Of a stretch of DNA of 64,000 nt, positions 31,970 through 56,882 are shown piece after piece. Position numbers and translations under genes: made by a program. The notes below the pieces were generated by a model. The model was not told where the DNA came from and did not search any database. It saw nothing but the letters and a program-made list of their open reading frames with translations. Source of the DNA: a virus. Its lineage: Duplodnaviria; Heunggongvirae; Uroviricota; Caudoviricetes. Location: the IMG/VR virus record IMGVR_UViG_3300037423_001636, positions 141,169 through 205,168 of that record; one strand, 5' to 3'. Position 1 is the first letter of the stretch, and each line of letters begins with the position of its first letter.

Positions 31970-32503
31970 ATGGTCACAACCGACACCCACGTCTTTTTCT
32001 ACTCTGGCCGCGAGATCTACTCCAACTGGCACATGACCCGCCGCCAGTTCGTCGATCCACTCATCGGCCCTATGGCCTATTTCGACTCCTCCGAGCAAGC
32101 GTTTATGTGGCGCAAGGCCGATTTCTTTCGGGACACTGTCACCAGAGACCTCATTGCTGATACTCCGGACCCCGCACACGCGAAGAAGCTGGGAAAACAG
32201 ATCTATGGGTATGATGATACGATATGGGAGACCGTGCGATTCGGATTCATGGTCTATCCATGCCTCCTGAAATTCCAACAGAATCCAGTCTTTGCCGCGC
32301 ATCTGAAAGCCACGAACGACCGCATCCTCGTTGAGGCTAGCCCCACTGATGCGATATGGGGCGTTGGTATGAGCGAAGAGGTTGCGGTTGAACATGCTGA
32401 GAAAGAGATGGAGAGAATTGGCAAGGACTGTGCTGAGTATATCGAATGGCCCGGCCGCAACCTGCTTGGGAAGGCACTGATGAAGGTGAGAAGCTTGATA
32501 TGA
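31970..32503 (+). CDS. NADAR-domain protein (YbiA-like; ADP-ribose N-glycosidase family)
   Basis: The sequence HVFFYSGREIYSNWHMT...FMWRKADFF...LKATNDRILVEASPTDAIWGVG matches the NADAR signature (FY...SNF ... LVE.SP.D..WG.G). Confidence 0.6.
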   Translation: MVTTDTHVFFYSGREIYSNWHMTRRQFVDPLIGPMAYFDSSEQAFMWRKADFFRDTVTRDLIADTPDPAHAKKLGKQIYGYDDTIWETVRFGFMVYPCLLKFQQNPVFAAHLKATNDRILVEASPTDAIWGVGMSEEVAVEHAEKEMERIGKDCAEYIEWPGRNLLGKALMKVRSLI

Positions 32504-32885
32504 CGACTCTAGACCAGTTCATCCGCAATCTCTTCGTCGGTCGTCGCGCTGTGCGAAACGACGGGCTGGACCGCAGAGCTTTTCTACGTACTCTCGTCGT
32601 CGGAGCGGCCATAGCGCCAACATTGCCCGCGATGATAGAGAGAGTGACGGTGCGACCATGGGGCCGTACGGTTAGAACTGACATTTACAGCCCGTCATTC
32701 GTGCAGATGATCAAGGACTTGGCCGACCCAAACTGGCAGGAAGCCATGCGAGCTAGGGAAGCGTTCGCCGCATTCATCACTCCAGTCCTTCAGAATGTGA
32801 TTGACTCCACGCCGCTTCCTCTCCCTCTTTTTATATCCAGAGAGCCGCTGTCTATACCTCTGGACCGATTTGATCTATTTCCCGC

Positions 32886-33680
32886 ATGAACATGCCCATC
32901 AATCGACGTTCTTTCCTCGCCTCTCTACTTGCCGCTCCAGCCGCGTTGTGGGCCGCAACTTGTGGGACCTCCAAACCCACCCCACAAGCGAAGACGGTCG
33001 CATTCGACGGAAAGCCGTTGACGCCAGTGCACTCTGCCGAGATCGGCCACCAGCTTCAATCCAAAGAATGGATGGTACAAGGTCTGGCTATCAAGGTGCC
33101 GAGCAATCGCTATTCCTATCTCCCGCCCAGCACCGTTTGCACTCCTGAAAATTTTGAACAACAACTGGCCCAAGCCCAGCATCTCTACATTGGCGAATGG
33201 GACGGCACCTTTATACTGGAGAAGGGCTGCACGAATCCGGCGTATATTCTCGCGGACTTGTATGAGCGGACGGGCGCGGAGCCAGATTGGGCGGTCGCCG
33301 ACAGGAGCGTTCCCGCTTCATTCGCGGCAATGCCGATGGTCACGGGAGGGGTATTGCAGCTCCTGAAGCCGCGACTCAATTGGCAGATGCTCTATGATTG
33401 GGGGCGGTTCTGTGATGAACTGGTGACTGGTTGGCAGATCAAGGAGGGAAGCCGTCTTGATGATGGCCTCATGATCTTTCAGTTTACTACGCCCGGCTGC
33501 CGCGACGGTTGGGTTGAACAAGTCGCTCCACGGTTTACCGTCAACACTGCCTGCTATACTCAGGAAGATTTGGAGGAACTGCGCCAGAATCTCCGGATGC
33601 ACTGCCTCAGCTGGCAGTCCACCGATCCCCGCTACCGGACTAGCTGGCCGGGCATTCCTTATCCAGAGAACCGCGCATGA
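32886..33680 (+). CDS. Putative secreted protein or lipoprotein with a twin-arginine signal
   Basis: The N-terminus MNMPINRRSFLASLLAAPAALWAATCGTS has a Tat-type RRxFL motif, a hydrophobic region and a cysteine. Confidence 0.45.
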   Translation: MNMPINRRSFLASLLAAPAALWAATCGTSKPTPQAKTVAFDGKPLTPVHSAEIGHQLQSKEWMVQGLAIKVPSNRYSYLPPSTVCTPENFEQQLAQAQHLYIGEWDGTFILEKGCTNPAYILADLYERTGAEPDWAVADRSVPASFAAMPMVTGGVLQLLKPRLNWQMLYDWGRFCDELVTGWQIKEGSRLDDGLMIFQFTTPGCRDGWVEQVAPRFTVNTACYTQEDLEELRQNLRMHCLSWQSTDPRYRTSWPGIPYPENRA

Positions 33681-33894
33681 CATCGGCCCAAGAATCACGT
33701 CTCCGTTACCTCCTGTCTAAGATGGAGGAACGAGCTGCTCCCGTAGGCCCAATGCACGCATGGTGGGATGATATCTTCGACATTCGTCTGCTTTTAGCTG
33801 GACAGCCAGAGAAAATGTGGTTCAAGTGGAGTGCAGAGCAGTGGATCGAAGAGTCTGAGAAGAATCTGAGGTCCGCTGGCATCGAAATACCTTC

Positions 33895-54402: not shown

Positions 54403-54635
54403 TTTGTCCGTGAGCAAACCTCGCTACGAATACAAGGTTGTTTTCGGTGGTTATGATTACTTCCCGGAGATCACGCTCAACGAGTTGGCTCAGCTGGGAT
54501 GGGAGTTAGTCACGGTATCCGCTGCGACTCCCCATGGCGGGGGTTCACACATCTACGGATACTTCCGGCGAGAAGTCCAGCCTACCGTGGCCACAGCTAC
54601 TTCTGTACAATAGACTTCATTTCCACCTTGACAGT

Positions 54636-54648
54636 GGACGCAAGAATC
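54636..54648 (+). promoter_or_regulatory. Conserved 13-mer GGACGCAAGAATC downstream of a CTTGACA motif (second copy at 1798-1810)
   Basis: The exact 13-mer follows CTTGAC at two distant intergenic sites (1782-1810 and 54628-54648). Each precedes a gene start (1855 and 54695). Confidence 0.4.
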
Positions 54649-56369
54649 TACAAGAGTCCCCATCTTAAACATCAATCTACAACCACATATATTCATGAGC
54701 AATCAATCTAAAAAACGTCTGAATCTAGCCGAGAAAAACCCCATCAATCTCGCCCTTGCCCGCAAGGTCGCCGATATTGTGAGCAAGGGGCTCACCTCGG
54801 GAATGGACGACGGCACGACGGACGAAGCTGGTAATCCTGTTCCCGGCCACATGTGCGTGGAAGCCGCGGTCTCGTTTGCCTGTGGAGAAGACCATGACGA
54901 CCATCCGAAGTGCGTGGCTAGATTCGTCGCCGACTACAAGATTGGGTTGAATGATGAAGGCACATATAAGAGCAAAAAGGATCGCGGCGAGTGCCTGCGC
55001 CGTATTGCGGTAGCCCAGTTGGGCTCGAAACAAATCAGCCATAGTGATTGGGAGGAGGCTCTCGGAGCCGCGGTGGAAGCCCACATACCGACGCTGGCCG
55101 TTCGTCTGAAACAGTGGGGCAAAAACTATGGTAATGAGAAACTGGCCGGGGTGCTTATCTCGGCGCTTAACGCCGTCGGCGAGAAACGAATGATGGAGGC
55201 TTTGGACGAATTGAATTCCAATGGAGTTGATGGAATGTACTATATCTGCCCCCTTGATTGTCAATCAGTCGAGGCAATCATTAATCTCTGGGGTGATGAT
55301 CGCAAGGGCACCCTCGCCGCCATCGAAATCGGCATTGACGCGCTGCGCCGCTGCAAGTCGCCGGGAATCAAGTTGATGGACAAGCTGATCGCGGAAGGAG
55401 TTATCTAACACCTGTCGGTGCTGGTTAGTGTCTTCGACACGAATTTCTATTTCAATGGCTAGCAAGCCTTACAGAGAAGTTCATAATCCTATCGACTGGA
55501 GCTGTCAGGGCGTAGAATCCGAGTTTATCCCCCCATCAGACTTCGCTTGGGAACTGATGGAGCATATGAGAACTCATAAGCTGGAGTGGTTGCATATGCA
55601 CTATCCTGAGCTTACATTCCAGCGTATAAATTCGGTCAAAACGCCCCGCCGACCAGATGGGACGCGGTTCGACTACTATACAAGAATCCGCGGCGGGGTT
55701 TGGATTGTGGCCGAATGGCAGAAAGCGCCACAAACCTCATGAGCGGAATCTTTCACGAAGACTCTAATCTCGGGGGCATCACTCGCTATCGAAGGGTTCC
55801 CGCCCCTTTCAGCATCGGCAATCCGGGACACTCAGTCATTCAAGCCGTGTATCTAGCGCCCGACGAAGACGTGATTTGGAACTGGGCTCATACACCGGAT
55901 GGGTCGTATGTCTGTGGCTACTCGATTCATAAACGCGACGAAACATCTCAATGAACACAGATTCCCCAGTATCACCAAAGCCCAAACGCACTTTCAACGA
56001 TCCCCTTTCCAAGATTCAGTCGCTCATTGACAAGCTACGGGCCAAGGGATGGATTTGCAAGGAGGGATCGGCTTATGGTGACGACTGGTGGTCAATTCGT
56101 TCGCCCCGCCTAACCAGCTCCGCCAGCTTCGACATTTATTGGGTTGGCGATCCCGAGCCGACGATGGATGAAGTGATTCGGCTAGAGTGCCAGTACTATG
56201 CTCGGCAGGAGCATGGAAAGCATATTGACGCGTCGCTTGAACTGATCAAGAACGATATTCTGAATAATCTGTCTATGGCGTATTATGCATCAGCATCAGC
56301 GGGGAAGGACTTTCCGATACCAGATGAGCTGGTAGTGAAGGATGTGACCGTGAAACTAAAAGGTGACAA

Positions 56370-56882
56370 GTGAGCGTAGAACATCTGTCTGGTGACTTCC
56401 TGTCATTTCCTCATGGTGTCAATGTCATAGCGCACATAGCGAATTGTCAGAACACCATGGGCGCAGGAATCGCCGCTCAGATCAAGGCCCGTTACCCTGA
56501 AGCGTTTAATGCCGACACGGTAGCCTACCAGACCGGTATGGCTCAGCTAGGGCTCTTCTCCCACGCCAGAGTCGGCGAGAATCGGGACAAGCGAATCGTC
56601 AATTTGTACGCTCAGTTCAGATTCGGGCGCGAGCGCCGCCATCTGGACTACGAGGCTCTCTACCAATGCCTGTCTGAGCTGAATGCTCTGCTGCGAGCCA
56701 AGAAGGACGAGGAAGGGTTGGACTTTGCGCTGGGGCTGCCATACAACATGGGGTGTGTCAATGCTGGAGGAAGCTGGATCGTTGTCGAAGCGATGATCCG
56801 CGACATTTTCGTTGACTCTCCAATCAGAGTTGTGATAGTAGAAAAAACTGAAACTCCACTAGACACCACTTCCACTCCATGA
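56370..56882 (+). CDS. Macro-domain protein (ADP-ribose binding/hydrolase)
   Basis: The sequence VNVIAHIANCQNTMGAGIAAQIKARYPEAF fits the macrodomain N-terminal glycine-rich ADP-ribose-binding motif. 170 aa. Confidence 0.6.
   Translation: MSVEHLSGDFLSFPHGVNVIAHIANCQNTMGAGIAAQIKARYPEAFNADTVAYQTGMAQLGLFSHARVGENRDKRIVNLYAQFRFGRERRHLDYEALYQCLSELNALLRAKKDEEGLDFALGLPYNMGCVNAGGSWIVVEAMIRDIFVDSPIRVVIVEKTETPLDTTSTP

Follow-up and report, generated by a model that had tools for sequence, protein, structure and literature searches.

When a large phage genome encodes both a NADAR protein and a Macro-domain protein, the question arises whether the two belong together, and whether they could reverse the ADP-ribosylation imposed by host defences such as DarTG. 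We addressed this question in a 64-kb stretch of viral DNA (hereafter the window). The initial annotation had listed positions 31970-56882 under one heading; our analysis identified two unlinked genes there, separated by 24 kb of DNA that holds about 40 unrelated ORFs. The direct neighbours of both genes are not conserved in related contigs, and a Pfam scan of 82 other ORFs of the window revealed no domain of the ART, Nudix, SLOG, sirtuin or Tpt1 kinds. Because the genes are unlinked and lack conserved partners, they are two independent, stand-alone accessory genes of an "orphan antitoxin-like" kind rather than one system. For each of them, our analysis established that the gene is real, to which family and fold its product belongs, that catalytic residues are conserved and that experimentally tested homologues exist (Table 1).

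The window comes from the contig, at least 205 kb long, of an uncultured jumbo phage with a DnaE-like polymerase, 18 tRNA genes and nearly all genes on one strand. Macro and NADAR domains are each present in about half of jumbo phages, and the two co-occur in DNA viruses above chance expectation (PMC9503650).

Table 1. Location in the window of the two genes and of their conserved residues and loops
Feature	Position	Strand	Basis
Stand-alone NADAR gene, 177 aa, Glu-type (YbiA/'NADAR' families)	31970..32503	+	Pfam, TIGR02464, 8BAU, AF2, Foldseek, Bas61
Glu42 codon = P. nicotianae NADAR E43 / E. coli C7 NADAR E88	32093..32095	+	8BAU alignment; invariant in 31 homologues
Lys49 codon = PnNADAR K50 / C7 K95	32114..32116	+	8BAU alignment; invariant in 31 homologues
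Glu122 codon in LVEASP = PnNADAR E125	32333..32335	+	8BAU and homologue alignments
Stand-alone macrodomain gene, 170 aa, GTG start, ALC1-like class, Tk.4/SCO6735 (Gln) type	56370..56882	+	phrog_335, profile, AF2, Foldseek, Tk.4
His22-Ile23-Ala24-Asn25 = SCO6735 His24-Val25-Cys26-Asn27	56433..56444	+	5E3B alignment; PMC9411070
Gly31-Ala-Gly-Ile-Ala35 phosphate-binding loop	56460..56474	+	alignment to DarG MGKGIA and MGAGIA-type loops
Gln82 codon (NLYAQ) = position of DarG Lys80, TARG1 Lys84, SCO6735 Gln85	56613..56615	+	alignments
Gly122-Leu-Pro-Tyr-Asn-Met-Gly-Cys-Val-Asn-Ala-Gly-Gly-Ser-Trp136, second ADP-ribose-binding loop	56733..56777	+	alignment to PRIGCGLAGGKW of BT1257 and SCO6735

The NADAR gene is a real ORF with an ATG start, and the JGI metagenome gene call P0061 coincides with it (100% identity, 100% coverage). 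A longer version with a GTG start at 31871 finds no support, as homologues start at the MxTTDTHVFFY motif. The initial assignment to the NADAR family was confirmed by Pfam PF08719 (E = 8.2e-36; 124 bits, gathering score 35.1), along with phrog_1017 (E = 7.5e-40) and TIGR02464 (104 bits, cut-off 73.7). A sequence search against the PDB matched 8BAU, the Phytophthora nicotianae NADAR-ADP-ribose structure (E = 2e-21), and Foldseek searches with the AF2 model (pLDDT 96.7) agreed with this assignment (8BAU, TM 0.85; YbiA 2B3W, TM 0.69).

All three catalytic residues, E42, K49 and E122, are kept and are invariant across 31 homologues. The position of E. coli C7 NADAR E88 contacts the distal ribose and is required for rescue, and PnNADAR K50/C7 K95 coordinates phosphate and is essential (PMC11543638). 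Position 122 tells the families apart, being Glu in YbiA/NADAR, Asp in DarG1 and His in T4 gp30.3, and by its sequence the window protein is of the Glu type, not of the DarG1 or T4 gp30.3 types. Its best solved relative is PnNADAR (35% identity over the structural alignment), which shares the three active-site residues and an insertion before the last helix, but is a eukaryotic protein and not a phage counter-defence gene. The insertion is helical, comprises some 13 residues (roughly 134-158) and is absent from the Bas61 protein discussed below.

Several phage NADARs have been studied as counter-defence proteins: the AdfN proteins of T4, Bas32 and Bas60 counter DarTG1 (PMC11825919). The window NADAR falls outside the T4 gp30.3 family (BLASTP E = 8.5, that is, no similarity), and has Glu where gp30.3 has His (LKHSI). 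AdfN(T4) works only in a T-even context (PMC11825919). It resembles instead bas61_0107 of Bas61, of the AdfN(Bas60) type found in E. coli phages Bas60-62 (34% identity, E = 4e-28); both proteins are stand-alone and outside the T4 family, with Glu in FVEASP in Bas61 and in LVEASP here. The AdfN(Bas60) type neutralises DarT1 without other phage factors and is inactive against DarTG2, and with it three phages regained plating on DarTG1 hosts (PMC11825919). G-ADPr hydrolysis has been seen in every NADAR family tested, and the Glu-type ones cleave C-ADPr as well (PMC12945103). We predict that the window NADAR is a guanine- (possibly also cytosine-) ADP-ribose glycohydrolase. It should be noted that neither E. 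coli YbiA nor T4 NADAR rescued cells from DarT1 toxicity, so that in vitro G-ADPr hydrolysis is no predictor of in vivo protection (PMC11125620). The initial annotation had credited NADARs and macrodomains with removing ADP-ribose from both bases and proteins; for NADARs, the known substrates are nucleic acids carrying ADP-ribose on G or C, and proteins are not among them (PMC11833690, PMC12945103).

The macrodomain gene is also a real ORF. From the sequence, we accept its GTG start as right because it overlaps the upstream stop codon (GTGA) and lies just downstream of a Shine-Dalgarno-like AAGGTG motif; homologues spanning 92-99% of the 170 residues also favour it. The JGI call P0001 (141 aa, start Met30) was rejected, as it removes the invariant Asn25. 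The Macro assignment failed the curated Pfam cut-off (PF01661; 18.8 bits, gathering score 22; E = 1.6e-3), yet it holds because four other lines of evidence support it: a match to phrog_335 (E = 7e-40); a family profile of 46 sequences that matches BT1257, DarG, SCO6735, Poa1p and TARG1 in the PDB (E = 4e-17 to 2e-15); the AF2 model (pLDDT 93.8); and Foldseek, where the best PDB matches were TARG1, BT1257 (TM 0.80), DarG, Poa1p and SCO6735. The model indicates a fold of the TARG1/DarG/SCO6735 class. Homologues are carried by 2892 phage records, and the T4 protein Tk.4 is a true homologue (30% identity, E = 2e-18, PHROG 335) that shares the NLYxQ motif, read as NLYTQ in Tk.4 of both T4 and SP18.

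Among the 46 homologues, Asn25 is invariant and His22 is at least 90% conserved, as are G31 and I34 of the phosphate-binding loop, where G33 and A35 are invariant. In the second ADP-ribose-binding loop, G122, P124, G133, G134 and W136 are at least 90% conserved, and Ala132 occupies the position of TARG1 Asp125 (TARG1 numbering, PMC9411070). Asn25 corresponds to the conserved macrodomain Asn mutated as N23A in PhiKZ AdfM (PMC13309987). A check of catalytic residues found E42, K49 and E122 in the NADAR and N25 and Q82 in the macrodomain; the macrodomain lacks the catalytic lysine of DarG and TARG1 and has a Gln of the SCO6735/Tk.4 type at that position. This Gln82 is invariant in the 46 homologues, aligning with the K of Mtb DarG and the Q of BT1257 and SCO6735, and in SCO6735 Q85A/E abolished activity (PMC9411070).

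The closest cellular counterparts are SCO6735 of Streptomyces coelicolor (profile E = 3e-16) and BT1257 of B. thetaiotaomicron (E = 4e-17), which share the H-[VI]-x-N strand and the Gln replacing the DarG/TARG1 lysine; the window protein, in contrast, is phage-borne. It has Ala32 where SCO6735 has Lys34, and the mobile loop after Gln82 comprises 11 residues with four arginines (R84, R87, R89 and R90), against 13 residues with two lysines in SCO6735. Read from the sequence, this arginine-rich loop would suit a nucleic-acid or other polyanionic substrate. SCO6735 takes T-ADPr off DNA and rescues cells from DarT (PMC9411070), and we predict that the window macrodomain is likewise a thymine-ADP-ribose DNA glycohydrolase. 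The macro fold and class, together with this predicted substrate, are shared with PhiKZ gp104 (AdfM), which counters DarTG2 (PMC13309987), and with bacterial DarG, but both of these are Lys-type (FPTK) and the window protein is only 22% identical (E = 4e-6). It scores 37 bits against DarG models, far under the cut-off of 250, and its 170 residues lack the DarG C-terminal DarT-binding domain. PhiKZ gp104 is imported into the phage nucleus, whereas nothing points to a nucleus in the window phage.

Taken together, we consider it probable that the two proteins are stand-alone ADP-ribosylglycohydrolases of complementary base specificity that counter DarT1- and DarT2-like host toxins; we infer the substrate, timing and counter-defence role in this phage, the role by homology. 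The NADAR would bind ADP-ribose on the exocyclic N2 of guanine (possibly on cytosine) in phage DNA or RNA and cut the N-glycosidic bond, with E42 and E122 positioning the distal ribose and K49 holding the diphosphate. The macrodomain would take ADP-ribose off N3 of thymine in single-stranded DNA, Gln82 and the His22-Ile23-x-Asn25 strand positioning the distal ribose and the catalytic water, an arrangement that may stand in for the lysine chemistry of DarG and TARG1. Produced in infected cells, both enzymes would erase DarT1-like (guanine) and DarT2-like (thymine) marks from replicating phage DNA, so that replication and packaging could proceed, as in T4 with AdfN (30.3) and AdfM (Tk.4). T4, a large lytic phage, likewise carries an unlinked stand-alone NADAR and macrodomain, one enzyme for guanine marks (DarTG1) and the other for thymine marks (DarTG2), a division that is predicted here.

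An unlikely alternative is that the main substrates of both enzymes are small soluble derivatives of ADP-ribose (for instance NAD-derived immune signals, or toxic metabolites like ADPr-1''-phosphate) and that the enzymes, rather than repairing DNA, blunt NAD/ADPr-based host immunity or clean up NAD turnover. Iyer et al. proposed such a role for the majority of phage Macro/NADAR domains, given how abundant these are and how they co-occur with SLOG, Nudix and NAD-salvage genes (PMC9503650), none of which was found in the window, although a related contig has a Prs-like and NAPRTase/NAMPT-like pair about 2.7 kb upstream of a 60%-identical NADAR. Poa1p, an ADPr-1''-phosphate phosphatase, is a structural neighbour of the macrodomain, and 'A1pp phosphatase' is a long-standing annotation of Tk.4; NADARs and macrodomains of the same types have since been shown to act against DNA-directed DarT toxins, and the arginine-rich loop beside Gln82 suits a polyanionic substrate.

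It is distinctly unlikely that the enzymes serve RNA, the NADAR acting on G-/C-linked ADP-ribose and the macrodomain on RNA ends or RNA-repair by-products, thereby shielding translation from host ARTs that target RNA or from anticodon nucleases. NADARs do reverse G-ADPr and C-ADPr on RNA (PMC11833690, PMC12945103), but the Gln-type SCO6735 is inactive on 5'-phosphate- and 2'-OH-linked RNA ADP-ribosylation (PMC11833690), and for CmdT-type adenine-N6 marks on RNA the listed eraser is CmdA rather than a NADAR or macro protein (PMC12945103). In contigs of other jumbo phages (at least 230 kb), the gene for P0006, a macro homologue with 49% identity, directly follows one for a T4-Rnl1-type RNA ligase and overlaps its end, a hint of some RNA-related function; the window's own RNA ligase (25030-26079; phrog_24030, E = 3e-129), within the 18-tRNA cluster, is 6 kb away from the NADAR gene and 30 kb away from the macro gene, and Tpt1/KptA was not found in the window.

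We regard it as very unlikely that the NADAR is a YbiA-kind metabolic N-glycosidase (cleaving riboflavin-pathway intermediates or some other ribosylated nucleotide or small molecule), unrelated to ADP-ribosylation and tied to the nucleotide-metabolism block that follows its gene. The TIGR02464 model whose curated cut-off it passes is named 'riboflavin biosynthesis intermediates N-glycosidase', but all NADAR families tested, including YbiA, hydrolyse G-ADPr, the protein matches ADPr-bound PnNADAR far better, with 80 bits, than E. coli YbiA, with 22 bits, and the window showed no riboflavin genes. The gene order (NADAR, kinase-like, 339-aa protein, PurA-like, AAA ATPase) is shared with the related contig mentioned above (50-60% identity), but this synteny is limited to a close relative, is broken by non-conserved ORFs and may reflect shared ancestry. 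Finally, it is highly improbable that the hydrolases regulate or contain an ART of the phage's own (like T4 Alt, ModA or ModB) elsewhere in the genome, protecting phage molecules: T4-like phages express NADAR genes early, together with ARTs (PMC9503650), in T4 itself gene 30.3 and alt are about 3 kb apart, and the window covers 64 kb of the contig, but the 82 other ORFs scanned hold no ART domain and known phage ARTs target proteins, which are not among the known NADAR substrates.

Counter-defence against DarT-like toxins is the reading we favour. The initial proposal that phage copies neutralise DarT-type defences is experimentally established for homologues, namely AdfN of T4, Bas32 and Bas60 and AdfM of T4 and PhiKZ; for AdfM(T4), the evidence is purely genetic and comes from a preprint, a tk.4 knockout making T4 sensitive to DarTG2 (bioRxiv 10.1101/2025.11.20.689424). 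The two genes of this jumbo phage are close in kind to the AdfN and AdfM proteins already shown in T4 and others to defeat DarTG, and represent a kind of finding that is known.

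Our analysis confirmed that both genes read by the initial annotation as a means of reversing ADP-ribosylation are present on the + strand (table below). Identification of the first as a NADAR gene stood firmly, with PF08719 scoring 124.1 bits (gathering threshold 35.1, E=8.2e-36) and the TIGR02464 cut-off also passed. An identical protein, P0061, was called on the 205,168-bp JGI metagenome contig, and a 121-kb Logan contig encodes it as well. Among solved structures, the best match was PDB 8BAU, the NADAR of Phytophthora nicotianae (PnNADAR) with ADP-ribose (E=2e-21), with E. 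coli YbiA far weaker (E=1e-3). The protein is predicted to adopt the YbiA fold, a helical core with small sheets on its flanks (AF2 pLDDT 96.7), and Foldseek aligned the model with 8BAU at a TM of 0.85 and with E. coli YbiA (2B3W) at 0.69. The NADAR of this phage clade also carries a PnNADAR-like helical insertion. Schuller et al. placed E43, K50 and E125 of PnNADAR at the positions of E88, K95 and D171 of the E. coli C7 antitoxin (PMC11543638). The corresponding residues of the window protein, E42, K49 and E122, align with those of 8BAU and are invariant across 31 homologues, so the NADAR keeps its catalytic residues.

The residue on the last strand distinguishes NADAR types: Glu in the YbiA and "NADAR" families, Asp in the DarT1-linked DarG1 and His in T4 gp30.3 (PMC11125620). 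Here it is Glu122, within LVEASP, and judged by this residue the window NADAR is of the Glu type. Cytosine-linked ADP-ribose is also removed by Glu-type NADARs, but not by the Asp or His types (PMC12945103). Unlike DarG1 (BC4488 family), which has the Asp and is associated with DarT1, the window NADAR has no adjacent DarT1 and lies among small unconserved ORFs. In the DarG1 of E. coli C7, the lysine K115 is required for in-vivo rescue. The T4 gp30.3 family (AdfN of T4) has no detectable BLASTP similarity to the window protein (E=8.5) and reads LKHSI where the latter reads LVEAS. The closest tested relative is bas61_0107 of phage Bas61 (34% identity, E=4e-28), of the AdfN(Bas60) type, which neutralised DarT1 unaided and allowed three phages to plate again on DarTG1 hosts, with no effect on DarTG2 (PMC11825919). 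By homology, the window NADAR is predicted to be an AdfN that removes G-ADPr and counters DarTG1; it should be noted that the in-vitro activity of NADAR proteins does not predict in-vivo rescue (PMC11125620). NADAR homologues were found in 733 phage records, including many from jumbo phages, and a search of IMG/VR with the NADAR alignment returned 589 viral loci, all at most 49% identical. Close homologues (51-61% identical) were found only in metagenomic contigs.

The second gene, encoding the macrodomain, begins with a GTG that overlaps the stop codon of the upstream ORF (GTGA), with an AAGGTG motif just 5'. The public JGI call (P0001) is a 141 amino acid protein starting at Met30 and omits window positions 56370-56456, that is, 29 residues that include the first strand and the conserved Asn25. 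Alignments to macro homologues span 92-99% of the full 170 residues, and the dropped segment holds invariant or near-invariant positions, so we consider the longer ORF right; automatic gene calling thus shortened this macrodomain by 29 residues and cost it the conserved Asn. A scan for promoters and terminators around the gene returned sites no commoner than in shuffled sequence.

Pfam alone did not support the Macro assignment, as PF01661 scored 18.8 bits, under the gathering threshold of 22 (E=1.6e-3). The assignment nevertheless holds because of matches to PHROG 335 (phrog_335, E=7e-40), a profile of 46 homologues that matches BT1257, M. tuberculosis DarG, SCO6735, Poa1p and TARG1 (E=4e-17 to 2e-15), a confident AF2 model (pLDDT 93.8), and Foldseek matches of this model to TARG1, BT1257, DarG and SCO6735 (E=2e-11 to 3e-8, TM up to 0.80). 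The ADP-ribose elements conserved in the family are N25, loop 1 (G31-A35) and loop 2 (G122...G133-G134). Tk.4-like genes were present in 2892 phage records, and a scan of IMG/VR with the single macro protein gave no matches.

On the catalytic residues the two proteins differ, as the macrodomain lacks the lysine of DarG (K80) and TARG1 (K84) and has at this position Gln82, invariant across the 46 homologues together with Asn25, Asn78 and Tyr80. The window protein further differs from DarG in its length of only 170 residues, DarG having a C-terminal DarT-binding domain, and it scores far below the cut-off of the DarG model NF048014 (37 bits vs 250) and matches the PADLOC DarG model only in its macro part (36.5 bits). 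In alignment with TARG1, Gln82 and Ala132 take the place of the catalytic dyad Lys84/Asp125. The resemblance is to the Gln-type, ALC1-like SCO6735 and BT1257: His22-Ile23-Ala24-Asn25 corresponds to the His-Val-x-Asn strand of SCO6735 and Gln82 to its Gln85, although Lys34 of SCO6735 is Ala32 here. The loop following Gln82 has 11 residues, four of them Arg (8 residues in TARG1, 13 in SCO6735). Substitution of Gln85 in SCO6735 (Q85A or Q85E) leaves the enzyme inactive. SCO6735 itself rescues cells from DarT and outpaces both DarG and TARG1 in removing ADP-ribose linked to thymine in DNA (PMC9411070). That Gln82 is invariant and matches this essential Gln85, and that the His-x-x-Asn strand is kept, speaks against equating the absent lysine with an absent catalytic residue.

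Of the characterised relatives, T4 Tk.4 (AdfM(T4), PHROG 335) is the closest (BLASTP 30% identity, E=2e-18), and the window protein has the motif NLYxQ in common with it (NLYTQ in Tk.4). Tk.4-type phage macrodomains share the Gln chemistry of SCO6735 and not the lysine of DarG, so that a missing catalytic lysine should not be read as inactivity in this group. PhiKZ gp104, also named AdfM, is by contrast a macrodomain of the lysine type, with just 22% identity to the window protein. A 2025 preprint singled out tk.4 as the one gene that T4 needs on DarTG2 hosts, naming it adfM (bioRxiv 10.1101/2025.11.20.689424). From homology to this protein, with the genetic evidence coming from T4 alone, we infer that the window macrodomain would protect against DarTG2.

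The window is phage-like: nearly all long ORFs lie on one strand, and its products include a DnaE-like polymerase, a DnaB-like helicase, a primase and exonucleases. When 7 kb were compared by megablast with 50,697 phage records, no near relative emerged, and no phage polymerase exceeds 30% identity to that of the window; by these comparisons, there is no cultured relative from which biology could be borrowed. The immediate neighbours of both genes have no family assignment, and tblastn of the flanking ORFs showed these neighbours not to be conserved in related contigs, in contrast to a block farther off. Pfam scans of 82 other window ORFs, within 64 kb of the 205-kb contig, detected no ART, Nudix, SLOG, sirtuin or Tpt1 domain, although divergent ARTs could escape such a scan. 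Given the lack of ART-type domains and the unconserved neighbours, the two are stand-alone, "orphan antitoxin-like" genes and not a two-gene system; their treatment as one feature (31970-56882) has to be abandoned, as 24 kb separate them.

Features of the window and of related metagenomic contigs
Feature	Position	Strand	Remarks
NADAR ORF	31970-32503	+	177 aa, ATG start
Macro ORF	56370-56882	+	170 aa, GTG start
ORF upstream of NADAR	28517-29926		469 aa; weak matches to CoaB/DFP C-terminal domain and class II aldolase domain
DUF4419 ORF upstream of NADAR	30195-31295		366 aa, E=4e-34
First ORF directly 3' of NADAR	32500-32889		twin-arginine-like signal sequence at start, read from translation (…RRAFLRTLVVGAAIAP…)
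Second ORF directly 3' of NADAR	32886-33680		twin-arginine-like signal sequence at start, read from translation (MNMPINRRSFLASLLAAPAALWAATCG…)
Conserved block downstream of NADAR	33895-40239; contig L009, 9502-15291		50-59% identity, same order
SPFH/Band_7 gene	52624-54402		592 aa, weak flotillin-like tail; 2 kb upstream of macro gene
Band_7 gene	contig L007, 2712-3920		402 aa; 4 kb upstream of 50%-identical macro homologue
tRNA cluster	15655-26413	+	18 genes, incl. five tRNA-Leu, three tRNA-Arg, two tRNA-Gln
RNA ligase gene	25030-26079		between two tRNA-Arg genes
Prs-like and NAPRTase/NAMPT-family genes	contig L009, 2638-5300		~2.7 kb upstream of NADAR homologue

The block downstream of NADAR that is shared with contig L009 comprises, in order, a kinase-like gene (phrog_3043), a 339 amino acid protein (phrog_2971, E=1e-68), a PurA-like gene and an AAA-type ATPase, to which L009 adds Thg1-like and HIRAN genes; the block may serve as a module of nucleotide or DNA metabolism. 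A Z-genome (2-aminoadenine) reading, raised by the PHROG label PurZ on gene 36782-38110, was rejected because the NCBIfam PurZ score is low (42 bits, cut-off 300), PurA models score higher (also below their own cut-offs), the nearest homologues among phages are "PurA-like" genes of mycobacteriophages (38% identity), and the polymerase is DnaE-like, not DpoZ-like. The two ORFs directly 3' of NADAR have no Pfam match and are not conserved in L009; the second has a possible lipobox Cys and a weak match to the tail-fibre J family (phrog_31, E=4e-6). The Band_7 genes upstream of the macro gene and of its L007 homologue show no similarity by tblastn.

Several other observations were made. In L009, the Prs-like (Pribosyltran_N) gene and the 581 amino acid NAPRTase/NAMPT-family gene are preceded by an NAD-dependent DNA ligase and look like an NAD-reconstitution pair, of which the Pfam scan detected no counterpart in the window. 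In L096 and L097 (3925-5540), jumbo-phage contigs of ~230 kb, the macro homologue P0006 (49% identical) overlaps the end of a T4-Rnl1-type RNA ligase gene and is followed by an IMPDH/FMN-dependent dehydrogenase-like gene. The window's own RNA ligase was identified through PHROG (phrog_24030, E=3e-129, with HNH-like matches at the N-terminus), a PDB search having given no match; together with the tRNA cluster, it resembles a module for supplying and repairing tRNAs. A batch Pfam scan of window 1-28500 found LAGLIDADG and HNH homing-endonuclease domains, a PD-(D/E)XK nuclease, a calcineurin-like phosphoesterase and a PHP domain, some of which may lie on the few minus-strand ORFs (14744-15331, 23795-24700).

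That phage copies counter DarT-type defences, as the initial annotation proposed, has been borne out for homologues of both proteins, AdfN(Bas60) (PMC11825919) and T4 tk.4 (bioRxiv 10.1101/2025.11.20.689424), the anti-DarT roles of both classes having been published in 2025-2026. The further proposal that NADAR removes ADP-ribose from proteins finds no support in the literature cited here (PMC11833690, PMC12945103). The best-supported reading, which we regard as probable, is that the two act as base-specific erasers: NADAR would remove guanine (perhaps cytosine) marks and the macrodomain thymine marks, thereby shielding replicating phage DNA from DarT1- and DarT2-like toxins, as in T4 with AdfN and AdfM. 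For both proteins, we infer substrate and biological role from tested homologues.

Alternatively, though with low probability, both enzymes might act on soluble ADP-ribose derivatives (PMC9503650), with which the NAD-salvage-like genes near NADAR in L009 are consistent. Less likely again, NADAR could be a YbiA-type metabolic N-glycosidase, in line with its score above the TIGR02464 cut-off, or the two hydrolases could control a phage ART located beyond the window. It is improbable that NADAR is aimed not at DarT1 but at a pierisin/ScARP- or YarT-like toxin, erasing G- and C-ADPr while the macrodomain covers thymine; if true, phage eraser coverage would extend to three of the four bases. To our knowledge, no phage counter-defence against such toxins has been described. 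RNA-directed roles, suggested by the position of P0006 directly after an Rnl1-type ligase, are countered by the inactivity of SCO6735 on RNA-end and 2'-OH marks (PMC11833690).

The Macro domain occurs in ~56% of jumbo phages and NADAR in ~48% of medium and jumbo phages, and the two co-occur above chance expectation (PMC9503650). Only two points are mildly unusual here, namely a NADAR closest to a eukaryote-type structure and a macrodomain of the Gln type, and the known mechanism is left unchanged by these genes. If both proteins are indeed erasers of DNA marks, a distant uncultured jumbo phage joins the phages with both base-specific ADP-ribose erasers, which strengthens the idea that DarT-like toxins, by ADP-ribosylating DNA, exert a widespread pressure on large phages.
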